Below, in pieces: positions 2,995 to 57,970 of a stretch of 64,000 nt of DNA. Source of the DNA: Escherichia phage JSE; sequence record EU863408. One strand, 5' to 3'. The translations under genes and the position numbers were made by a program. Each line of letters starts with the position of its first letter. The stretch's first letter is position 1. The notes beneath the pieces were generated by a model. It saw nothing but the letters and a program-made list of their open reading frames with translations. It was not told the DNA's origin and did no database searches.

Positions 2995-3022
2995 ATTATA
3001 GAGAATCTCCCTTGTATGTCAA
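2995..3022 (-). promoter_or_regulatory. sigma70-type early promoter
   Basis: minus strand TTGACA, 16-nt spacer, TATAAT, followed by GGGAGTCTCCC inverted repeat. Confidence 0.55.
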
Positions 3023-3582
3023 CTAAAATTTAAAGATGCAAACTCCCCGTGATGAATTTTTGCATATTCATCATATGCTCTAGCGGCTTCCTCCTGAGTA
3101 GCAAACGATCCTATGTATTTTCTGTATCCGTTTATCCTTATTTGTGCTTGCCACGGTCTTTTGCTCGATCCTTTGCGATGAGTAACACCATTATATATGC
3201 TCGTGCACCCGTCCATTTTCTTTTTATTGTACATGTTTTGTTGTTGTGTTGCCTCCCGTAAATTTGGTGGATTGTTGTTTTCTGGATTCCCGTCTATGTG
3301 GTCTATTACCTTAACCTGTGTTCCATATTCAAGAAACCAGACAATTCTATGTACAAGATATGTAGATGTTCTCTTTTTAACCTTATTGTAAACATCTATT
3401 GCCAAATGACCGTAATTTAACTTTTTTGTTTTTACTTTATCACCGACTTGGTAGAAATATCCCTCTGGTAGACCATTAAAAGACGGACTATTTGTTTTGT
3501 GATATAGAACACCTTCCGTGTGTCCAAATCTTCGTTTTAATTCCTCTTGAATTTCAGTATTCCAAAATTTCGCACTTTTCAT
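3019..3582 (-). CDS. free-standing HNH homing endonuclease with C-terminal AP2-type DNA-binding domain
   Basis: 187 aa; HNH core HIDGNPENNNPPNLREAT; AP2-like tail (YNGVT...WQAQI...GSFATQEEAARAYD); start 1 nt after gene 39 stop; paralog at 56960-57535. Confidence 0.8.
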   Translation of the reverse strand: MKSAKFWNTEIQEELKRRFGHTEGVLYHKTNSPSFNGLPEGYFYQVGDKVKTKKLNYGHLAIDVYNKVKKRTSTYLVHRIVWFLEYGTQVKVIDHIDGNPENNNPPNLREATQQQNMYNKKKMDGCTSIYNGVTHRKGSSKRPWQAQIRINGYRKYIGSFATQEEAARAYDEYAKIHHGEFASLNFS

Positions 3583-3583
3583 A

Positions 3584-5407
3584 TTATGACGCCATCCATG
3601 CCTTCCTCATGTCTGAATCTTCACTATAGAGCAAATCGAATAGCTCTTTATAGTTTTCCGGTAACGTGATGATCTCCATGACAGGATCGTTGATCACGCG
3701 ATGATAGTCTGATTCTGTGAGCGATGCTAAACCTTTGATATATCGAATGTTGTAACCTTTGATATTATCTCGGTCGTTCTCGAAATCTTCTAGGTCATAA
3801 TACCATCGAACATCATCACCTTTCTTTGGTTCAGCAATGATAATAGGTGTTTTGATAAACCGGATTCGTCCATCTTCGAACAATTCAGGCCAACGTGCAA
3901 AGAAAGAGATCAGACTAGGTTTAATAGACCCGATCCCGTCAGTATCAGCGTCGGTCATAATCGCAATATTTTTGTATTGCATAACTTCCAATGCATCAAC
4001 ACCAAATTGCAAGCCAGTGATCGCCATGATGTTAAAAATTTCGGCGTTCTTAACGATCTTTGCCTCCGGTTGTTCCCACGTTGTAAGAGTTTTGCCTCGC
4101 AACGGGAAACCTCCATGTAAATCTTGATCACGTACAGAGATCAGATAGTTGATCGCGGAATCACCTTCCGTCAAAAACAGGGTAGTTTCTGCGTCAGTTC
4201 CAATAAGGTTAGCTTTAACGTGTTTTGCTACCTTAGCCCGTTTTGCTGCCTTTGCTGCCTTAGTCGCTGCCGCTTTATCTGCTGCCTCTTTGCGTGCCAG
4301 GACTACAGCAATAATAGGCATGATAATGTTTTCTTTCTTCGCAATGACTTTAGCCAGCTTTTTAAAATCAAGATCAATATGACGCTTGATATCACCAGTT
4401 GGGTTAGTCAAGCGTTCTTTTGTCTGTGAATCAAAACGAAGGTTAGGCAATTCACGAACAATCAAAATACAGGTCAATCCAGACTTAACCGCAGCTTTAG
4501 TAACATCAACCTTATATTCTTTCTTGATTCGTTTTACAATCTCTTCACAAAGATCATCTGTCACGTAGTCTACGTGTGTTCCCCCGTTTTTGGTAAACAG
4601 ACCGTTAGCAAAGGATACTGATTTAAAACCTTCTCCCTCGACCGCCGGAACTAGGGCAAGTGAAAAGTTTTTATCTTCAATGACAAACGGATCATCATTG
4701 TATAGTTTAGCATAATCCTTGAACTTACTAACAATACGTTTACCATTAAACTTAAACGTGATCTTAGGAAATATTACGCTCAATGATTGCAGACGATCAT
4801 GAACAATATCTAAAACAGAGTTGTCCATCATATAACCTTCGAAGTGGTCGAAGTCTGGGCAAAATGTAACCTTTGTTCCCTTCAATTTTGATGGTTTCGA
4901 TGACCATGTGATATTTTCAGCACCGTTTGTACATTGAACGGTCATTTCTGTTTCGCCGTCACAGGTCACACCAGTAAACCAATCGCTAAAGAAATTTGAT
5001 AACGACGACCCAACACCGTTCATCCCTTGCGTTAATCGATTGGTATCATCAAAGTTAGACCCTGCTTTTGTTCGTGTCCATGCGGCTACAGGTTGCGGAA
5101 TCTGCGTACCCTCTGGGGTAGTAACCATATGTTGAGGAATACCGCGACCGTTGTCTGTTACCGTAACAATATTGTTTTGGATATCGACGCTAATCACATT
5201 GGCAAATTCAAAATTAGTGCGAATCGCCTCGTCTACAGAGTTGTCGATGATCTCATCAATGATTTTCACCAGTCCAGGAACATATGAAATTTTTGTCCAT
5301 TTACCGAACAGGAAACGTTGATGTTCTTCGTAAGTTGTTGATCCTATATACATTCCTGCACGCTTAAGGACATGCTCACGATCAGATAAAATGCGAAACT
5401 CACTCAT
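3584..5407 (-). CDS. 39: DNA topoisomerase II large subunit (GyrB-like), gene 39 fused with gene-60 region
   Basis: 607 aa; N-terminus MSEFRILSDREHVLKRAGMYIGS; GHKL ATPase and TOPRIM motifs; one continuous ORF through the region that T4 encodes as gene 60. Confidence 0.9.
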   Translation of the reverse strand: MSEFRILSDREHVLKRAGMYIGSTTYEEHQRFLFGKWTKISYVPGLVKIIDEIIDNSVDEAIRTNFEFANVISVDIQNNIVTVTDNGRGIPQHMVTTPEGTQIPQPVAAWTRTKAGSNFDDTNRLTQGMNGVGSSLSNFFSDWFTGVTCDGETEMTVQCTNGAENITWSSKPSKLKGTKVTFCPDFDHFEGYMMDNSVLDIVHDRLQSLSVIFPKITFKFNGKRIVSKFKDYAKLYNDDPFVIEDKNFSLALVPAVEGEGFKSVSFANGLFTKNGGTHVDYVTDDLCEEIVKRIKKEYKVDVTKAAVKSGLTCILIVRELPNLRFDSQTKERLTNPTGDIKRHIDLDFKKLAKVIAKKENIIMPIIAVVLARKEAADKAAATKAAKAAKRAKVAKHVKANLIGTDAETTLFLTEGDSAINYLISVRDQDLHGGFPLRGKTLTTWEQPEAKIVKNAEIFNIMAITGLQFGVDALEVMQYKNIAIMTDADTDGIGSIKPSLISFFARWPELFEDGRIRFIKTPIIIAEPKKGDDVRWYYDLEDFENDRDNIKGYNIRYIKGLASLTESDYHRVINDPVMEIITLPENYKELFDLLYSEDSDMRKAWMAS

Positions 5408-17061: not shown

Positions 17062-18538
17062 TTAAATGTCAAACAGGTCCGTCAGTGAAGCAACTTTTTC
17101 ATATTGCAGCTTCGCAGCCGTGGTAATGTTCTCCAGTGGTTTGACGAAAGTCTTATTAAACAACAAAGGCCAGTCCAACCACTTCAACACCTCTGATTCA
17201 ATTTCTGGCGGAATACGAGTACCAGACAACCAACCAAAACAGATTTCTCCAAACGGATTTCGGTCTTTAAGCGGTACAATCATAACCTTCTCGCCTTCAC
17301 GAATCGGATCTAGTCCGAATTTTCGAGCATTACGATTATAACACAATACACTCTTAACCGCATACGGACAACCCTTAATCGGATACCCGTTTGAATCGCT
17401 GTATTTCTGTAGGTTGTTTGCAGATGATACCGCAGCAACATCAAGATAGTCAAGTTTTCTAAATTCTTGCTCAAAAATACCGTAGTATTCCTGCAATGAC
17501 TCTTCACCTTCCTGCAACATACGGCGAATACATTCTTTCAGTGATTTCTGGCATGCTTTAGGGGTGGAGCTACGTTGCGTTTCCAAGCCCATGATTTTTA
17601 GCTTAGGTTCAGCAAAGCGCGTTCCTTCCATATCCCAAACATTAAGAGCATAACGCTTTTTACCAGTCCAGAATCCACCGATACCCGCAGATTTCAACGG
17701 AGGACCAGCAATTGCCTCACGGTCCATAAACATCAAGTGCTCATAGTTGTTCATGTACTCGCATAACTCGCGATATCCCTTGTCGATAATAGGTTCCATT
17801 CGATGTTTACCGAAATTATCAAGGAAGTCAACAAGTTTTTCGGTATCGTCGAAACGGTCTTCCCCGCCAACCTTATCAATAACATTGTTAACCAGCACAT
17901 AAACGGAGTCAGTATCACAATAACGAACATATGCAAAATCAGTCGTTCCGCAAAGCTCGTTTAAGTATTCGTTAATCTTACGCTCAATCCACTGAATTGC
18001 AAGCTGACCGAACAGTGTGATCGCACTAGCGTTACGGAGATCATAAAAACGGAATTTAGGATTCCCCAACGCACCATAAAGGGAGTTGATCAAAACTTTA
18101 CGAGAAAGCTGGTTTGTATTGCACAAGATCGACTCGTCTTTACATTCTTCCAGTAATTTCTCTAATGCATCTTTACTCAATTCAGAAAGCATCGATTTAA
18201 ACGCTTCATCGAAGTCGTGACGCACTTCAACGCTATAGCTAATGGTTCCCCCATAAACATGATTTTCATCGTGTAGAATCGCTTTACAGAGTTCAGCATT
18301 GCGGTCACATGCCAACATCATGTTTTTGTACTGCTTACGCTGATCGAATACCTTTTTAATCTCAATCGGTACGATACCGTGAATATCTTTTCTATACATC
18401 CATCCGTTAGGCGAGCAAGAATACTCATCACTCGGACGTGGTGCAGTTTTATTGATATACTCGTGCATCGGTGCAGCATCAAAAGATCCGGCGATTGTTT
18501 CCGGCGAAATATTAACCTGACGGATGATTGATGGATAC
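17062..18538 (-). CDS. 43: DNA polymerase gp43, exon 2 (motifs A-distal, B, C; thumb)
   Basis: track ORF 17062-18468 extended in frame upstream to 18538, adding YPSIIRQVNISPETIAGSFDAAP; contains KVLINSLYGALG and YCDTDS. Confidence 0.85.
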
Positions 18539-19002
18539 CATTATGTTCAGCGTGGTTCGCTACTCCCGCGCCCGTTCTCTTGCGAACTGCTACATGTCAC
18601 CATGTAGATCAGACTATATCACATTCTCATAGAGAATCCTGCCATTTCGAATCGCTTGATTCTACTCTACTCGGTTCGTTACCCTTTCGATAGTCGTTGA
18701 ACAACTGCATCTTTAAGCTCATTTTGATCAAACGGTGTTCTCTTACAGTATCCGCTATAATTCTTCACCCTGATACGGATTAGACACCAGTTTAATGTAG
18801 TCGTTTAATGCTTCCTCGTTATGTATTTCGTACTTTCTTAAAATGTCTTTCATCTCGCGCCTCCAATGTATATCAATATCTATATACATTATAAGACACG
18901 TTAGCTCAAAATGCAACTGCTGCTGATTGTCTCCTTAGAGATTTCCCAGCAATTAAGCAGGTTATTCGATCACTGTCACCAGTGAAAGCCCCATATCAGT
19001 TT
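18539..19002 (-). mobile_element. group I intron in gene 43 (464 nt, no endonuclease ORF)
   Basis: exon 1 ends ...TSL (CCCU|) then in-frame stop; intron AAACUGAUAUGGGG...GAACAUAAUG|; contains UUCAACGACUA and GAUAUAGUCU cores; splicing restores DLTSLYPSII. Confidence 0.8.
18755..18853 (-). CDS. small intron-internal ORF (32 aa)
   Basis: hand-translated MKDILRKYEIHNEEALNDYIKLVSNPYQGEEL; SD GGAGG; no endonuclease motif. Confidence 0.25.
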   Translation of the reverse strand: MKDILRKYEIHNEEALNDYIKLVSNPYQGEEL

Positions 19003-20204
19003 AGGGAAGTAAGGTCAAAGCTCATCATCCAACGGTAAGCATTCGGCACAGGTTCTTTTACGAATGCGCCCGGATAAGTCTGCTTAGGCTGTATCTTGTT
19101 CTCTGGTACTACTTTACCCTCAGCTTTCAGAGATCCGAAGATAATAGCATCCCATACTTTCATCGGGTTATAAACATGGTTAAATTTAATCTTTGCATAG
19201 AAACATAGGCTATACACCAGATCGATAAATCCGCGCTTTTTATCAATCGCCAACACACGGTCAACGTCGCCGATGTTATAATCGATGTAAAGTTGATGGT
19301 TGTCATCACGCAATTTCTTTAACGGACCATCATAATCAACCTTACCGATTCCTGTCTCATATTCAGCAACATAATCTAACGCATATGTTGGTTGAGTCGT
19401 AAAGCTAAATTTCTTGTACAGGTCAATATAATCAAGGCTTTCGATCCCCATGATCGTAAATGCTTCACGCTCGTTGCCAAAATCATCCTGTGAGATTCGG
19501 GATTTAATCTTACCGCACGGGCTTAGACGGTTAGCGGTTCTACTTCCGAACTTATTACTGATACGTTTAATGATATATGGAATATCGAATGTTTCTGTGT
19601 TCCAGCCAGTGAAACCAACGGGTCGGTTTTCCTCAAAGAATCGGATGTATTCTAACAGCAATTCATCTTCTGTGTCATAGACGTTATAAACAACGCGCTC
19701 TACAATATCAGGTCGAAGAATAGACTTGCTAGATTCCCAGATTTCACCGTTTTTTCCTTTCAAATCAAATACAAAGAAACGATCATGTACGGAATCATAA
19801 TGCGTAATTGCATCGATAGGATATTTCGCTTCTTCTGGTTTAGGAAATTCTGGGGCAGTGACCTCGATATCAACCCATGCTACACGGATTTTATTTCGGT
19901 CATATCGAATCTCGCCTTTATACGTATCAGACAGATAGGAGATGATAAAGTCATCCATCCCTAGCGCCTCCTGCCCCATTTCTCCCATCTTTTTACGCCA
20001 TTTGTTGGCCTCGTTCATAGATGGGAATTTTTTAGCAATGCAAGGCTTGCCATAGATATCTTTATAATTCGTAACCATACCAGGCGCGGCATGATGAAAT
20101 AAAGTTGGCGTATATTCAACGTAACGCTCTTGTTCTTGTCCAGCATCATCAATATAACGCTCGTAGATCTTATCACCCACTCGCTCACATGACAGAAAAT
20201 ACAT
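19003..20204 (-). CDS. 43: DNA polymerase gp43, exon 1 (N-terminal and 3'-5' exonuclease domains)
   Basis: track ORF 18996-20234; start at ATG 20202-20204 (SD AAGGAG; MYFLSCERVGDKIYERYID matches T4 gp43 N-terminus); Exo motifs; ends at SFDLTSL. Confidence 0.85.
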
Positions 20205-20236
20205 AATATAAACTCCTTCACTTACGAAAGACACTC

Positions 20237-33793: not shown

Positions 33794-34297
33794 TCAAATA
33801 ATTTTCACTGGAATACTATTAACAATCTTGTATTGTACTTGATTGTCAGACCCCCGCCACGGCTTCTTCGTTGGCATATCTTTAATATAACGCCCATCGA
33901 TGAACATGTCAACTGATTCTACAATTTTTCTTTGCTCATCATTCAATTGGTCAAGGGTATAACCGGACCATAGCCAAATATCTTTATTTGGCATCCATGA
34001 TTTTACTTCATCGATGATCCGCTGTACACCCTTTAAATTGCGTTTATACAACGGATCACCACCTAAGAATGTTAGCCCCTGAATAAAATCAGGTCTAAGC
34101 AGATCCAGAATCAATCCCATTGTATCATCGGTGAATGGTTCCCCGTTCTTAGGATTGAGTAGGCTAGCATTAAAGCAACCATCACATGCGTGTGAACATC
34201 CGGTAACGTAAAGGGAGACTCTCACTCCCTCACCGTTAACCATATCACAATCTTTAATATCGGCATAGCGTAGTTTGCCGTATGTATCAGAACTCAT
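33794..34297 (-). CDS. nrdG: anaerobic ribonucleotide reductase activating protein (radical SAM)
   Basis: track ORF 33794-34303; CSHACDGC radical-SAM cluster motif. Confidence 0.85.
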   Translation of the reverse strand: MSSDTYGKLRYADIKDCDMVNGEGVRVSLYVTGCSHACDGCFNASLLNPKNGEPFTDDTMGLILDLLRPDFIQGLTFLGGDPLYKRNLKGVQRIIDEVKSWMPNKDIWLWSGYTLDQLNDEQRKIVESVDMFIDGRYIKDMPTKKPWRGSDNQVQYKIVNSIPVKII

Positions 34298-34439
34298 ATT
34301 CAATTACCCCGAACTCGTTTACAATCTGCGCTTTATAGTAACCACCGCGAGATGCTAATAGATAAGCTGGGCTTAGGTATTCGTATTCACGGATTTCTAC
34401 TTGTGCGTTTTCAGTTTCCCAAATCAGTAAAGTCCACAT
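34287..34439 (-). CDS. small hypothetical protein (50 aa)
   Basis: track ORF 34287-34514 trimmed to ATG 34437-34439 downstream of promoter; AGGAGAATCAAAT-ATG. Confidence 0.45.
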   Translation of the reverse strand: MWTLLIWETENAQVEIREYEYLSPAYLLASRGGYYKAQIVNEFGVIEYEF

Positions 34440-35714: not shown

Positions 35715-36707
35715 TTACATGTGCTTAACGCGGTTTACCATCTCGGAGTGTTTCCCGTGGTTAAATGGACGCAGATCAACAGATCCAAGATATCCACTAA
35801 CGCGACGGATAACATTCATCTTTTCCAGATTGTCATTTCCGCAATCAGGGCAAACAAAACCAGACTCGGTCGCTCTCATTTCCTTATTAGATCCGCATAC
35901 ATGACATACATCAGAAGGAGTATTAACACCGAAGTAGTGCAATTTATCCATTGCATAGTCTACTACAGTTTCAAGACCTTTCAGGTTGTTTTTCATGTCT
36001 GGGAACTCAACATAAGAGATCATGCCACCGGACGCCAGCCAGTGATAATCTTTCTCAAAGTCGATTTTCTCAAATGGTGTGACTTTCCGGTCTACGTCAA
36101 GGTGGAATGAGTTGGTGTACCAGTCTTTATCGGTAGCACCCTTAACAATACCAAATTGCTCTCTGTCCAGTCGATTAAATCGATAGCAAAGGCTCTCGGC
36201 TGGCGTACCGTAAAGACTAAACCCAAGTCCGGTTTCGTCCTTCCATTTTTCAGTATAATGACGCAAGATCTTAAGAATATGTTTACCGTATCGCTGCGCA
36301 TCTTCCGAATCAAACGGATGAACACCAAACAGGACGCTCAATACCTCATGTAAACCAATATATCCAAGAGAGATACTAGCGCGACCATCTTTCAGCACTT
36401 CCAAAATTTCATCGTTTTGATGAATACGGAAAAATGCACCTTCTGTATACAGTACAGGAGCAACATTGGCTTTAGCCCCTTTTAAAGCGTCTACGCGACT
36501 CATAAGCGCATCAAAGCAAATAGGCATACGATTAGCTAGCTCTTGTTCGAATAGCTCAATTCTGCGCATTACAGACGCTTTACCAGCACGACGCGCGGCA
36601 ATAAGAGCAATACGCGGAAGATTCAGAGTCACAACACCCAAGTTATTACGTCCGTCTAATACTTCCTCGCCTTTCTCGTTATGCCACACACCCAGGAAAC
36701 TTCTACA
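35715..36707 (-). CDS. nrdD: anaerobic ribonucleotide reductase NrdD, exon 2
   Basis: 330 aa starting CRSFLGVW; glycyl-radical motif RVSGYLG; C-terminal CxxC...CxxC. Confidence 0.85.
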   Translation of the reverse strand, partial: CRSFLGVWHNEKGEEVLDGRNNLGVVTLNLPRIALIAARRAGKASVMRRIELFEQELANRMPICFDALMSRVDALKGAKANVAPVLYTEGAFFRIHQNDEILEVLKDGRASISLGYIGLHEVLSVLFGVHPFDSEDAQRYGKHILKILRHYTEKWKDETGLGFSLYGTPAESLCYRFNRLDREQFGIVKGATDKDWYTNSFHLDVDRKVTPFEKIDFEKDYHWLASGGMISYVEFPDMKNNLKGLETVVDYAMDKLHYFGVNTPSDVCHVCGSNKEMRATESGFVCPDCGNDNLEKMNVIRRVSGYLGSVDLRPFNHGKHSEMVNRVKHM

Positions 36708-37467
36708 CATTATTTGTTCAGGGTAGGTCGCTAATCTACCCCCGCCTTTCGGCTGCTACATGTCGCCATGCAGATCAGACTATATCTTCTATCTTTCGAT
36801 AGTCTACCATTTCGGATCGCTTGATCCTACGCCGCTACATTCATCACGGCTAGTCGTTAGGCATTTCATAGCGGAACTCATATTCATAAGTATTGGTTTT
36901 TCTACCATCAAGAATTGCAGATACATTTTTACGATGCAAGCCCAATGTTTCAGAAAGACTTCTCACGCTTTTAAATGTCTGCTCTTGTCCGGTTTCTTTA
37001 TGGATCGCAGTAACCTTATATGAACGACGTTTGAACTTATAGCACCCGTTTTCGTAACCTTCTTTCGTGTTTTCGCTGTTAGTCCCCCACTCAAGGTTAG
37101 ATGCATCGTTTATAGTTTTATCGTCGTTTTTATGTTTCACATATCGATAGCCGTTAGGATTCGGAATCCAACATTCAGCCACAATAACATGAACACGCAA
37201 ACATAAAGGTTTCTTGTCTCTCCTTACCCTTACTAATGTATATCCGGTATTGTTTTCTATCCAGGTACTCAACTGTTTACCTTTAGGAGAAAACACCCGT
37301 CCATCTTTCGATACCATATATTCGGTATCACGAATTTTTCTAAGTTCCATAATATATCCTCTTATACACATTGGCGTAAAGAGAATATGACCGCTATGTT
37401 TAGCACGGGATTGTCTTCTAGAGAGTTCCCCCGTTTAGGCAGATTTTAGATGAGCTGTTTAAAGTTT
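36708..37467 (-). mobile_element. group I intron in nrdD carrying an HNH homing endonuclease gene
   Basis: exon 1 ends ...SPMG (GGGU|); intron AAACUUUAAAC...GGGGGAACUCUCUAGAAGACAAUCCCGUGCUAAA...CUGAACAAAUAAUG|; cores CCUAACGACUAG and GAUAUAGUCUGAUCUGCAUGG shared with the gene 43 intron. Confidence 0.8.
36850..37350 (-). CDS. intron-encoded HNH homing endonuclease (NUMOD4/HNH_3 with IENR1-like tail)
   Basis: track ORF 36850-37371; start MELRK at 37348-37350 with SD AAGAGGA; HVIVAECWIPNPNGYRYVKHKNDDKTINDASNLEWGT; stop overlaps intron core. Confidence 0.8.
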   Translation of the reverse strand: MELRKIRDTEYMVSKDGRVFSPKGKQLSTWIENNTGYTLVRVRRDKKPLCLRVHVIVAECWIPNPNGYRYVKHKNDDKTINDASNLEWGTNSENTKEGYENGCYKFKRRSYKVTAIHKETGQEQTFKSVRSLSETLGLHRKNVSAILDGRKTNTYEYEFRYEMPND

Positions 37468-38337
37468 ACCCATCGGGCTAACCGGAACACTAGATCCAGT
37501 GATGCTACGGTTATTCTTCGCAGAGATATAATCAGGGTAAAGACGCTTACTAGAACATTCCAATGCAAGTTGCTTAATGTCGTAGTTCGGATCTTCCGGT
37601 TTAAGGTTTAATCCTTCTTCTAAGAACATCACCAGCTTAGGAAACACCGGAGTTATACCGTCTTTACCTAAACCTTTAGTTCGAACTTTCAGGATCGCTT
37701 TCTGAATCAGTTTTTCTTCCCAGCTAGTACCCATACCAAAGGTTAAAGTCACAAAAGGTGTTTGACCGTTGGTAGAGAACAAAGTGTTGATCTCATATTC
37801 CAACGCCTGATATCCGTCTAACGTTTCTTTTTCTGTTTTCTCTTGTGCATAGAGAGTATCAGCTTTGATTCCGTAGGTTTCGGCATCAGCAAGGTGTTTA
37901 TGATATGTTTTCTTAACATACGGCGCTAACACCTGGTCGATGTTTGCAATTGTGGTCCCGCCATATTGATGACTTGCCACCTGTGCGATAATTTGAGCGG
38001 TTACAGCACATGCAACACCGATCGATTTAGGACTTTCGATTTGTGCGCTACCCAATTTAAAACCATTCTCTAACATGTCTTTGAGATTAACAAGACAGCA
38101 GTTAGTAAACGGCATAGCTGGTGCATAATCCATATCATGATAATGAATATCACCGTCTACATGCGCTTTATAGATGTGCTCAGGTAACACGGTTTTAGCA
38201 ATATGTTTAGACACAGCGCCAGCAATCAGATCTCGACGTGTCGGGAATGTTCGCGCGTCTTTGTTCGCGTTCTCTTTGCTTACTTCGTTTTCTTTACCCG
38301 TTGCGATCTCTGTAATGTCTTTGATTAGTTTTTCCAT
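37468..38337 (-). CDS. nrdD: anaerobic ribonucleotide reductase NrdD, exon 1
   Basis: 290 codons ending ...SSVPVSPMG; in-frame stop 2 codons into the intron; joins to CRSFL of exon 2. Confidence 0.85.
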
Positions 38338-54354: not shown

Positions 54355-54548
54355 CATGGTACTAACTCCCAACGATCACCGCGAAGATGAGAACATCCAC
54401 CATCAAGAAGTATCGTAATACGATAACCTATATCATCTTTGATGTAACCGATTGTCGGTGGATTTTCGTCGTCTCGTGCCGGGGTAAAATCATACATCTT
54501 TCCGGGCGTAATATCTTGTCCTTTATTGCTATTGGTATAAACTTGCAT
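54354..54548 (-). CDS. hypothetical protein (family C)
   Basis: 64 aa; ...DGGCSHLRGDRWELVP module. Confidence 0.45.
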   Translation of the reverse strand: MQVYTNSNKGQDITPGKMYDFTPARDDENPPTIGYIKDDIGYRITILLDGGCSHLRGDRWELVP

Positions 54549-54569
54549 TTTCTTAATCTCCTATATTAA

Positions 54570-55268
54570 CTAACCACGGGTATAGTGTTCCAGAACAACG
54601 GTCAGATGAATATATTCTAATAGATCTTTCCAAAAGTCAACATCTGGTTCTTCCGGCATACCGTTTTTCTTTGCCTCTTCACGCGCGAGTTTAACACGCT
54701 CGTAGAGATCTTTCAATTCTTCCCGCACATTATCAAAGGTTCTTTCTCCTAACTTACACGCTAAAATAGAAGAACGTCGCGCGAGCGGGAATTGTAGATC
54801 ACCTGTCTGATAGATTTCAAGTAGCTGATAACCAACACGCAGAGCATGAGAAAGATCTTTCCAGTTACTGAAATACTTTTCAGATTTGGCTACCTGCTTT
54901 TTGAGATAGCCAGACAAACCCCACATACCAACATGATAGAATTTATCTCGATGTGTTCGGATGTATTCCCATTCTCTGGAGGATTCAACCAACATGTTAC
55001 TAGGCGCGTGCACCATATCAATAGCGCCGATATCGCCTTTACATGCCAGATTGATAAACCGTTTTAGACTGAACATATTAACGTCAATATCGTCTTTGGT
55101 GTTCTTGATCCCTTGACCGCTAGTGCTTTGATCATAGTGTTCTTTCATCGATCCTAAGATAATTTCTTTCGCAGTCGGAACAAAGATACCACGATAATCT
55201 TTATCGGAATTTTCAGTATCAAGGCCGTATAAGTGAGATCCGAAGACCATTTTAACCATTGTATGCAT
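54570..55268 (-). CDS. predicted nucleotidyltransferase (pol-beta superfamily)
   Basis: 232 aa; N-terminal GSHLYGLDTENSDKDYRGIF fits the G[SG]...D.D signature. Confidence 0.55.
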   Translation of the reverse strand: MHTMVKMVFGSHLYGLDTENSDKDYRGIFVPTAKEIILGSMKEHYDQSTSGQGIKNTKDDIDVNMFSLKRFINLACKGDIGAIDMVHAPSNMLVESSREWEYIRTHRDKFYHVGMWGLSGYLKKQVAKSEKYFSNWKDLSHALRVGYQLLEIYQTGDLQFPLARRSSILACKLGERTFDNVREELKDLYERVKLAREEAKKNGMPEEPDVDFWKDLLEYIHLTVVLEHYTRG

Positions 55269-55281
55269 AATTAAACCCTCA

Positions 55282-55812
55282 TTAGTATTTTACGTTACGT
55301 CGAACGCCTTTTCGAATCTGACAAATAGCAGACGGTGAAACATTATATTTTCTTGCAAGTTCTACACCCTTCATATGGGGAGAAGATAAAATCTCTTCCA
55401 CTTGGTCGTCGGTAAGTTTTGCGTTTCCGTGGTTCTCTCCCCAATTTTTGTTTAATCCTTCTTCCTTCGCATGAACAAGATTTCGGGTATCTGTCGTCCA
55501 TTCAAGATTATAAAGGTCATAGTTTTGTTTGTTTCCATCCTTATGATTAACTACACGGTAGTTATTTGGATTCGGAATAAACGCAACCGCCATAGCTTTA
55601 TGCATGTTCACGGTTTTTCTAAATCCATCCGGCTTATAACATACTGTAAATTTAGAATAACCAGTTTTACCATAAACACTAATATAATTTCCGGTCTCCG
55701 TATTTCTAACCCTACCATGAGAGCTAATCTCAAATTGAGTGTAGGGCAACAGCGCATCAATCACTTTCCATTCTTCGACAGGATGGTCATCACAATATCT
55801 TTTAATCATCAT
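55282..55812 (-). CDS. free-standing HNH homing endonuclease (NUMOD4/HNH_3 with C-terminal HTH)
   Basis: 176 aa; EEWKVIDALLPYTQFEISSHGRVRN; HKAMAVAFIPNPNNYRVVNHKDGNKQNYDLYNLEWTT; directly after terminator 55822-55852. Confidence 0.8.
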   Translation of the reverse strand: MMIKRYCDDHPVEEWKVIDALLPYTQFEISSHGRVRNTETGNYISVYGKTGYSKFTVCYKPDGFRKTVNMHKAMAVAFIPNPNNYRVVNHKDGNKQNYDLYNLEWTTDTRNLVHAKEEGLNKNWGENHGNAKLTDDQVEEILSSPHMKGVELARKYNVSPSAICQIRKGVRRNVKY

Positions 55813-55821
55813 ATCACCTCA

Positions 55822-55852
55822 TAAAAATAAAGCCAACCCTTTCGGATTGGCT
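55822..55852 (-). terminator. intrinsic terminator after GrcA-like gene
   Basis: minus RNA AGCCAAUCC-GAAA-GGGUUGGCU then UUAUUUUUAU. Confidence 0.6.
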
Positions 55853-55859
55853 TAAAAAT

Positions 55860-56276
55860 TTACATTGCTTCCGTAAAGGTGCGCGAAATAACGTCACGTT
55901 GTTGGTCTGGAGTCAGACTATTGAATCTTACGGCATATCCGCTAACGCGAATGGTTAGTTGCGGATACTTATCAGGATTAGCAACCGCATCGAGAAGAAG
56001 ATCGCGACTCATAACATTGATATTAGCGTGCTGACCACCTTCGACAACCGGAGCACCATTATCTACAATCACCGGACGGAAGCTAGTTGTGTGCAGTGCC
56101 AGAGAATCGACGTCTTCTGCGGTGATCACATGGTCTTCTGCGAAAGTTTTACTAACAATTACTTTAGCGCCGATCAGTGCTTTCGGTTCGGATACCAGAA
56201 TCATAGGCGCGAAGTGTCCACCAATAATAGTACCTTTATGCTCACCTTTCATGATTTGAATTGCTTTAAATTCCAT
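55860..56276 (-). CDS. autonomous glycyl radical cofactor (GrcA/YfiD-like)
   Basis: 138 aa; C-terminus [33 protein letters not shown] near-identical to E. coli GrcA. Confidence 0.8.
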
Positions 56277-56283
56277 AATTCAC

Positions 56284-56412
56284 CTCTTATAGATCAGGAC
56301 GTTCGTCATTAATTTTACCAACCAAAACACCATAGAGTTTATCAGGTTGGACTTTACGATTCTTTTTAATTGTAGCACGGAATCGACGAGCTACGCTATC
56401 TTTATTTTTCAT
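56284..56412 (-). CDS. small basic ORF (42 aa)
   Basis: hand-translated MKNKDSVARRFRATIKKNRKVQPDKLYGVLVGKINDERPDL; TAATG overlap with upstream stop. Confidence 0.35.
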
Positions 56413-56897
56413 TAGTTGATACCTAAGCCAATGAAAATAGGTTGGTCTTCTACATTACCCATCCCAACACTAAGTCGATTCAATTCTAAAAACTGCAATA
56501 CGCTGTCAGTAAATCCGCGCATGGTAGTATCTAGGATAAAAATTGTTTTGTCAAGACTACGACCTCGCCATGTGATCGGATTCAGGAAAGTTCGGATAGA
56601 TGTACAATCTACATCTGAAATATTTACATTTTCACCGCGACCGCGATCTCGGATCGTTTTGGCATGTTCCCGCGTCGTTGAAACGATAAAGACACTATAG
56701 CCTTTTCGCGTATAATGGTCATATAACTTGATTGTAGCGTCTGTATGCCCTGTCTGACGGCCTAAATTGATTGAGACGATGGAATCTAGGTCATCAGCAA
56801 AATTGCGTCGCTTACGGCGTTCTATGATGCCATTTACGGCAGATACACACGCAGCATAAATCAAATCTTTACTTTCTAATTTTACATCAATATTCAT
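56412..56897 (-). CDS. hypothetical protein
   Basis: 161-aa ORF; preceded by inverted repeat ACGGGGAGA...UCUCCCCGU. Confidence 0.5.
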   Translation of the reverse strand: MNIDVKLESKDLIYAACVSAVNGIIERRKRRNFADDLDSIVSINLGRQTGHTDATIKLYDHYTRKGYSVFIVSTTREHAKTIRDRGRGENVNISDVDCTSIRTFLNPITWRGRSLDKTIFILDTTMRGFTDSVLQFLELNRLSVGMGNVEDQPIFIGLGIN

Positions 56898-56959
56898 GGT
56901 AAAGTCTCCAGTGAACGGGGAGAGATCCTTAGATTGTCTCCCCGTTGATGGTTAATATT

Positions 56960-57535
56960 TTATTTTGGATCTGGGAAATTCAATAGAGCATATTCTCCAT
57001 AAAATTTCCTAGCTGCATTATCATAAGCGATTGCAGCTTCGATTTCTGTGTCATATTGTCCAAGAACATGTCTTTGTAGGTTGACCATTATACTAGCTCT
57101 CCATTTCTTACGCAAATCCTTCCTGTTACACTTACTAACACCCTTATACACACTAGAAAACTTTTTAGACTTCTTCTTTCTATTATGTTGATTTTGCGCG
57201 TCGGTTGCCTCCCTAAGATTTGGAGGATTGTTATTAGCAGGATTACCGTCAATATGATCAATTAATCTAACTTGCGTCCCATGTTCTAGAAACCAAACAA
57301 CCCTATGCACGAATAGATGAACTCTAGGAAGACCGTCATCTCTACTATGCCAAAATCTAAGATGACCATCTTTATTTGTTCTGACTTTAACTAAATCGCC
57401 GTGTTTATATCTACTCCCTAATGGTCGTCCTTTGATAGCTTTACTATCGACTCTATAATATAAGATACCCTCTATATGAGCATATCTAAGTTTTATCTCG
57501 TTTTGTAGGGATTCATCCCAATATTTAAAAGCCAT
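56960..57535 (-). CDS. free-standing HNH homing endonuclease with AP2-type domain (paralog of 3019-3582)
   Basis: 191 aa; HRVVWFLEHGTQVRLIDHIDGNPANNNPPNLREAT; also similar to 3019-3582 at nucleotide level. Confidence 0.8.
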   Translation of the reverse strand: MAFKYWDESLQNEIKLRYAHIEGILYYRVDSKAIKGRPLGSRYKHGDLVKVRTNKDGHLRFWHSRDDGLPRVHLFVHRVVWFLEHGTQVRLIDHIDGNPANNNPPNLREATDAQNQHNRKKKSKKFSSVYKGVSKCNRKDLRKKWRASIMVNLQRHVLGQYDTEIEAAIAYDNAARKFYGEYALLNFPDPK

Positions 57536-57580
57536 TTTATAATCCTCACAAAGCCAGCGATTAAGCTGGCTTTATTTTAG

Positions 57581-57970
57581 TTATACCGGGTCTGGATATA
57601 CCTTTTTATCGAGTTCCATATGCGGTCCGTCTTTAAAAGTAACCCAATCAACACCGCAGATAACAGGAACACCCAATTCTCGACCAGCTTGTTTAAATGC
57701 ATCAGCGATCATACGGTAGTATTTCATGTTCCATGTATCCTTATCTTTCGGATACGCTACAACGTCAACCGCGAAACCGTGAAGATGACGAGATTTCATA
57801 GTCTTAGATTTACCTTCCGCAACATATTTCTTTTGCGTTTCTAGACTACGTACACCTTCCGTAATACCAAAATCGACCGGAGTCAGTTCTAACGCACGAT
57901 GAACGACTTTTACCAGGTCTGGATGCACACCAACAAGCCGATCTTTGCTTCTTTGAGATAATTTAAACAT
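57581..57970 (-). CDS. peptidase M15-type cell-wall hydrolase (L-Ala-D-Glu / D-Ala-D-Ala peptidase fold)
   Basis: 129 aa; SRHLHGFAVDV zinc-binding signature. Confidence 0.65.
   Translation of the reverse strand: MFKLSQRSKDRLVGVHPDLVKVVHRALELTPVDFGITEGVRSLETQKKYVAEGKSKTMKSRHLHGFAVDVVAYPKDKDTWNMKYYRMIADAFKQAGRELGVPVICGVDWVTFKDGPHMELDKKVYPDPV

Follow-up and report, generated by a model that had tools for sequence, protein, structure and literature searches.

A phage Vs.6-type GrcA-like gene and an adjoining optional HNH endonuclease gene in Escherichia phage JSE

Two proteins have been validated as spare parts for pyruvate formate-lyase (PFL), YfiD (GrcA) and Y06I of phage T4, both of which are described as restoring PFL that has been cleaved by oxygen (PMC8683613, citing Wagner et al., 2001). 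According to the same source, the radical is placed on YfiD or Y06I by the PFL-activating enzyme and both proteins then bind the oxygen-cleaved PFL; a role for spare parts with other glycyl-radical enzymes is also considered possible there (PMC8683613). T4 contains a single GrcA-like place, gene vs.6, and Y06I would correspond to Vs.6, since vs.6 is the sole GrcA-like ORF in that genome. A literature search pairing vs.6 with pyruvate formate-lyase gave no match. Homologues resembling grcA were found in 1578 of 50,697 phage records, distributed over T4-like, T5-like, Aeromonas and jumbo phages and including T4 and T5, and 'autonomous glycyl radical cofactor' is already the label of many of these homologues and of the gene in several Krischvirus relatives of the phage studied here.

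Free-standing HNH endonucleases (Mob family) are typical of T4-like phages, in which optional HNH genes are routine. The nearest structurally characterized relative of the endonuclease gene described below is I-HmuI of the Bacillus phage SPO1 (PDB entry 1U3E), which is encoded within an intron.

The DNA analysed was a stretch of 64,000 nucleotides from Escherichia phage JSE (sequence record EU863408), referred to as the window and numbered from its first letter. A megablast search with positions 54500-57600 returned 57 phage records, every one of them from Krischvirus, a group of RB49-like Straboviridae related to T4. Phage Whisky matched best, at 98.6% identity across the entire query (100%). 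The genes of this region all lie on the minus strand. The annotated order in RB49 is endolysin, vs.8, a 41-aa ORF, vs.6, nrdC.11, ..., regB, vs.1, so that synteny in relatives, which the initial annotation had proposed as a check, places vs.6 between vs.8 and nrdC.11/regB. Feature coordinates are presented in Table 1.

Table 1. Coordinates of the features in the window and the evidence on which they are assigned.
Feature	Position	Strand	Evidence or remarks
nrdG, radical-SAM activase	33794-34303		Fer4_12 2.4e-43
nrdD, interrupted, two ORFs	35715-38337	minus	37459-38337 matches NRDD profile 1-250; 35715-36710 matches 264-562 plus Gly_radical
nrdC.11-like nucleotidyltransferase, downstream flank of the slot	54570..55268	minus	Pfam RlaP 2.3e-14; phrog_388 2e-79; RB49 name nrdC.11
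Right junction of the insertion, nrdC.11-like ribosome-binding region TGAGGGTTTAATT	55269..55281	minus	No difference between empty and occupied genomes
Free-standing HNH homing endonuclease gene (HEG A)	55282..55812	minus	176 aa; phrog_59 ~1e-36; I-HmuI 1U3E E=7.5e-8
HNH catalytic core of HEG A, residues ~87-115, VVNHKDGNKQNYDLYNLEWTTDTRNLVHA	55468..55554	minus	Aligned to I-HmuI; Pfam HNH_3 covers 87-112
Diverged patch: 3' third of the grcA-like gene (last 55 codons) plus terminator, abutting the slot	55820..56025	minus	Sliding-window identity, dS
Intrinsic-terminator-like hairpin	55830..55853	minus	10-bp GC-rich stem, GAAA loop, T-run; closes the vs.8/41-aa ORF/vs.6 run
vs.6/grcA-like gene, candidate spare-part glycyl-radical protein	55860..56276 (including stop)	minus	138 aa; ORF, Pfam, PDB, phrog_1209, RB49 annotation
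RVSGYAV glycyl-radical fingerprint codons	55929..55949	minus	G113 codon 55938-55940, read from the sequence
41-aa ORF	56287-56412	minus	Upstream, co-directional
vs.8-like gene	56412-56897	minus	Upstream, co-directional

The initial annotation had reported a 138-aa ORF with an ending near-identical to that of E. coli GrcA/YfiD. This was borne out: across the 31-residue stretch that it had singled out, two positions (D/E and S/A) distinguish the protein from E. coli K-12 GrcA. The best matches in the PDB were E. coli GrcA (6OWR, E=6.4e-29, residues 37-137 of the phage protein) and the C-terminus of PflB (1H16/1CM5, residues 698-759, E=9e-26). Gly_radical was the sole Pfam match (E=4.7e-15, residues 78-119), and from these three E-values the match is far above chance. 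The profile of the phage family phrog_1209 matched the protein from end to end (3e-48), and the gene is named vs.6 in the RB49 annotation.

The window protein was aligned using MAFFT with E. coli K-12 GrcA, the PflB C-terminus, T4 Vs.6 and four Krischvirus alleles. The alignment contained 31 invariant columns in total, among them the R-x-S-G-Y-A fingerprint. The conserved glycine, on which the earlier proposal depended, is present as G113 and is equivalent to GrcA G102, PflB G734 (735 with the initiator Met) and T4 Vs.6 G95. Searched against NCBIfam, the protein scored 127.4 bits with TIGR04365 (spare_glycyl, the bacterial GrcA equivalog), over residues 37-138 only and under the cutoff of 170, which is missed because the N-terminal half is unlike that of bacterial GrcA. 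On sequence criteria it falls within the phage Vs.6 branch of GrcA-type proteins and is no strict equivalog of bacterial GrcA.

Compared with T4 Vs.6, to which residues 4-138 are 60.2% identical over 118 residues, the Krischvirus protein is likewise small and of the same architecture, and shares the RVSGYAV...TFTE C-terminus; its gene has the same surroundings, with the endolysin/vs.8 genes on one side and regB on the other. It differs in having 18 additional residues in its N-terminal half, and in T4 vs.6 is followed by vs.5 with no endonuclease gene. Residues 37-138 align with residues 29-127 of E. coli GrcA (6OWR) at 61% identity (60.8% over 97 residues), with identity at 47 of the last 62 positions, whereas the N-terminal ~36 residues could not be aligned by HMMER and the homologue here belongs to a virulent phage. 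The protein also resembles the C-terminal glycyl-radical domain of PflB, with 46 of the last 61 residues identical to PflB 700-760 (75.4%), a segment that includes G734/735; unlike PflB, the phage protein stands alone at 15 kDa and has neither the catalytic barrel nor the Cys418/Cys419 site. The GrcA-type autonomous glycyl-radical identity given to the ORF at the outset is thus upheld by its sole domain and by the similarity to both T4 Vs.6 and PflB.

The grcA-like gene is under purifying selection. Codons 1-83 show 0-1 amino-acid changes between the window and kvi, G2248 and RB49, and in the same comparisons codons 84-138 give a dN/dS of 0.06-0.10 despite strong divergence. Recent capture of the gene from the host was considered and ruled out, as the DNA of E. 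coli pflB is only ~70% identical to the 3' part of the gene and no long match was found; this level of identity points to an old phage gene. E. coli genomes contain a median of two places similar to this 3' part, pflB being the best.

From sequence we infer radical formation, PFL rescue, and the activity and target of the endonuclease. In the proposed mechanism, the C-terminal 60-odd residues of the 138-aa protein would mimic the glycyl-radical domain of host PflB, and host PflA would place the radical on G113. The protein would then dock into PflB that has been cut by oxygen at its radical glycine, or into inactive full-length PflB, and docking would allow infected cells to convert pyruvate to acetyl-CoA and formate again when oxygen is low or fluctuating. 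The phage would rely on its host for both PflB and PflA: no homologue of either was found within the window, in which the sole radical-SAM activase is NrdG, and the mechanism presumably needs the host proteins for this reason. The joint explanation that we favour, at a probability of roughly 0.8, is that a Krischvirus Vs.6 protein acting as a PFL spare part is encoded ahead of a terminator and a selfish HNH gene, next to a patch made by recombination.

The initial annotation had set the gene alongside the phage's own NrdD and NrdG, and both nrdG and nrdD do lie within the window (Table 1), which indicates that the phage invests in anaerobic metabolism. Since NrdD is also a glycyl-radical enzyme, is encoded together with its activase NrdG and shares RVSGY with the 138-aa protein, the latter might be imagined as a spare glycyl-radical domain for phage NrdD instead of for host PFL. 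This idea was rejected as extremely unlikely: beyond RVSGY no similarity to the C-terminal part of NrdD was detectable (BLASTP E about 1), the glycyl domain of NrdD has a zinc ribbon that the 138-aa protein lacks, and it is PflB that the last 61 residues match so closely.

Service to another host enzyme of the formate-lyase type (e.g. TdcE, 2-ketobutyrate formate-lyase), instead of or besides PflB, is improbable. The two similar places in a typical E. coli genome would suit it, as would the wider role for spare parts raised in PMC8683613, but PFL rescue is the only rescue shown for the family and other glycyl-radical enzymes matched far more weakly (E 1e-10 or worse), TdcE and PflB not being separable here. 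We give very little credence to the protein being a decoy that soaks up host PflA or blocks PflB so as to redirect fermentation. It carries the activase recognition motif and its N-terminal half is unlike bacterial GrcA, as a decoy might; the whole C-terminal docking region is conserved, however, and not just the activase-binding loop, and the T4 homologue is reported in PMC8683613 to restore PFL activity rather than to inhibit it. A PFL spare part therefore remains our preferred reading of the 138-aa protein. We know of no in vivo tests to date of the role of phage spare-part proteins in low-oxygen infection.

Transcription of the run of genes upstream would end at a hairpin seven bases past the stop codon of the grcA-like gene (55853-55830), with the sequence AAGCCAATCC-GAAA-GGGTTGGCTT followed by TATTTTTAT. 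Its folding energy was -17.2 kcal/mol (z=-4.2) and none of 200 shuffled sequences was equally stable. The stem is invariant in seven genomes, and a terminator is annotated here in the G2248 record. A scan for consensus promoters found 16, which does not exceed the 11.5 +/- 3.7 expected from shuffled sequences, and gave no clear promoter; an Rfam search of the whole window at gathering thresholds gave no matches and thus linked no RNA element to the locus.

The endonuclease gene that had been reported directly after the terminator was recovered there as an HNH ORF, and the placing of the GrcA-like gene 'upstream' of it is correct by the direction of transcription. Translation of HEG A probably starts at the second ATG (55809), which is favoured by its spacing to GAGGTG and is also the start annotated in Whisky. 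Pfam matches to HNH_3 (23.6 bits, cutoff 24.8) and NUMOD4 (20.7 bits) both fell just below gathering, and an NCBIfam search with the protein gave no match. When aligned with I-HmuI, the core NHKDGNKQN...NLEW...N..H lies opposite VVDHKDGNKDN...NLRWVTQKIN. Both the N-terminal β-rich DNA-binding part and the HNH core align with I-HmuI, whereas the C-terminal part of HEG A looks more like a helix-turn-helix (weak CENP-B-like match, E=0.2) than like the C-terminus of I-HmuI. Moreover, the gene stands free between two genes and does not lie in an intron. HEG A resembles the free-standing HNH endonucleases of T4-like phages in being small, optional and next to conserved genes. The ORF is intact and its dN/dS relative to the copy in phage phiS is 0.25, from which it appears to be maintained; 'homing endonuclease' is already the label of this gene in GenBank records of relatives.

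Occupancy of the slot was assessed by searching with the vs.6-nrdC.11 junction from a relative in which the slot is empty. The search covered the 57 Krischvirus records, a number that counts records, some of them duplicate GenBank/RefSeq entries, and not independent phages. The slot was empty in 45 records, which gave a one-piece match of ~601 bp, and occupied in 12, which gave a two-piece match spanning 1105-1175 bp. HEG A was present in three records (011D4 and Whisky at 99.6% nucleotide identity; phiS at 81% nucleotide and 74% amino-acid identity) and a different 197-aa HNH gene, HEG B, in nine; the two proteins are 28% identical over 129 residues. The suggestion that the locus is an endonuclease insertion hotspot agrees with a slot that is mostly empty and otherwise holds one of two different HNH genes.

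On the nrdC.11 side, all slot states come together again at TGAGGGTTTAATTATG, where nrdC.11 has its ribosome-binding site and start. In phage phiS the spacer of the empty type persists ahead of the endonuclease gene; this places the insertion point just 5' of TGAGGGTTTAATTATG and identifies the spacer as ancestral intergenic DNA. An ATGATG mini-ORF in the empty slots had been considered as the footprint of an endonuclease deletion and was rejected, since phiS keeps the same spacer beside its endonuclease gene. The optional and presumably selfish I-HmuI-like HNH gene sits just 5' of the nrdC.11 ribosome-binding site.

The two flanks of the slot differ sharply. Sliding-window identity to empty-slot relatives fell to 75-85% within 55820-56025 only and was 97-100% on both sides of this patch; on the nrdC.11 side identity returned immediately to 98-100%, a level held by the nrdC.11-like gene right to the junction. 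Synonymous divergence (dS) was 1.08-1.29 for codons 84-138 of the grcA-like gene against 0.05-0.07 for codons 1-83. Flank identity to kvi was 84-92% in all 12 occupied genomes and >92% in all 45 empty ones. JK32, which carries HEG B, has a patch of its own (~300 bp, 51-72% identity) and phiS has another. No donor of the window patch was found by a sensitive blastn search of the phage collection: beyond four other Krischvirus phages with the same patch, all matches were at <=82%. At least four patch types can be distinguished in Krischvirus, those of the window/KFS-EC, phiS, JK32 and RB49/kvi. RB49 and kvi, both with an empty slot, themselves differ at vs.6 codons ~84-95, where RB49 has QHLNINVLLREMLL, and mosaicism in the 3' half of the grcA-like gene therefore extends to genomes with an empty slot.

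The bounded drop at the slot, the foreign and synonymously saturated character of the patch and the flank divergence in occupied genomes make the patch a likely candidate for an endonuclease-associated gene-conversion (co-conversion) tract. Repair set off by the endonuclease, in which the flank of the donor is copied, would be expected to leave such a pattern. Recombination stimulated by the endonuclease would most probably account both for the presence of two HEGs in one slot and for the foreign 3' patch, and the recoded flank possibly confers resistance to cutting. KFS-EC and FL15 have an empty slot yet carry the window-type patch (96% identical; KFS-EC 850-1210), switching to empty-type sequence inside the terminator loop, so a patch can exist without an endonuclease gene. 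Either the gene has disappeared from these phages, or the patch is older than the gene and represents an allele that possibly resists cleavage; the patch might be such an older allele, beside which the endonuclease gene was inserted, rather than DNA imported with the gene.

A more specific version of the co-conversion reading, that both HEGs home by cutting the glycyl-radical-motif DNA of vs.6 and have repeatedly overwritten its 3' end with foreign recoded alleles, is conceivable but doubtful; if it were true, KFS-EC and FL15 would be cleavage-resistant survivors. It is unlikely that the endonuclease gene has become fixed or domesticated, or is decaying as a relic, and that the patch arose by ordinary homologous recombination unrelated to it. 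T4-like phages do recombine heavily, and the patch without the gene in KFS-EC and FL15 would fit. However, HEG A is intact with the dN/dS given above, the slot varies in presence and absence with two different genes, the identity drop starts exactly at the slot in every occupied genome, and a second endonuclease gene in the window (56960-57535) is accompanied by the same one-sided drop, there in the end of the endolysin gene. Co-conversion associated with the endonuclease thus remains the likelier origin of the patch.

Both the grcA-like and the endonuclease gene are real but ordinary for RB49-like phages, and genes of their kind are already known: phage GrcA homologues have been recognized and biochemically validated since 2001 (T4 Y06I), and ~1600 phage records contain one. 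What is gained is a firm annotation for genes that are still 'hypothetical protein' in the records of several relatives. The bounded recoded tract is a new detail, tidy but expected. The locus is a clean natural case of a slot in three states, beside which part of a metabolic gene has been recoded within sharp limits, and could possibly be used to test homing and co-conversion.

Two intron-like inserts were observed elsewhere in the window. Relative to RB49, nrdD contains a clean insertion of 760 bp (36708-37467) between codons 290 and 291, which carries a 173-aa HNH/I-HmuI-like ORF (36850-37371) and gives a weak match to the group I intron model (RF00028, 27.4 bits, E=9e-5). Only phiS among phage records matches the insert, and then in part, as the phiS record begins inside it; nrdD is uninterrupted in the other relatives listed. 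Gene 43 (DNA polymerase; 17062-20234, minus strand) is split into ORFs of 412 and 468 aa by an insert of about 464-475 bp (18539-19013) that scores 42.9 bits (E=1.6e-9) with the group I intron model, for which the gathering score is 50. Twelve relatives have the same insert together with ~650 bp annotated as an HNH/NUMOD3 endonuclease, by comparison with which the insert in the window looks like an intron without its ORF; the insert is absent from RB49 and Whisky.

Two further ORFs combine HNH_3 and AP2 domains. One (187 aa; 3019-3582, minus strand) lies directly beside gene 39 (topoisomerase large subunit, 3584-5407), at a position where RB49 has small hypothetical ORFs only. The other is the optional gene at 56960-57535 (191 aa, minus strand), which is situated between the endolysin gene and vs.8 and is lacking in kvi and in many other relatives; the adjoining 3' end of the endolysin gene (57600-57700) has 74-83% identity to kvi, a one-sided drop like that at the vs.6 slot. 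Between this HNH-AP2 gene and vs.8, at 56898-56959 (minus strand), there is a GC-rich hairpin that lacks a T-run (ACGGGGAGA...TCTCCCCGT) and might have a part in RNA stability or processing.
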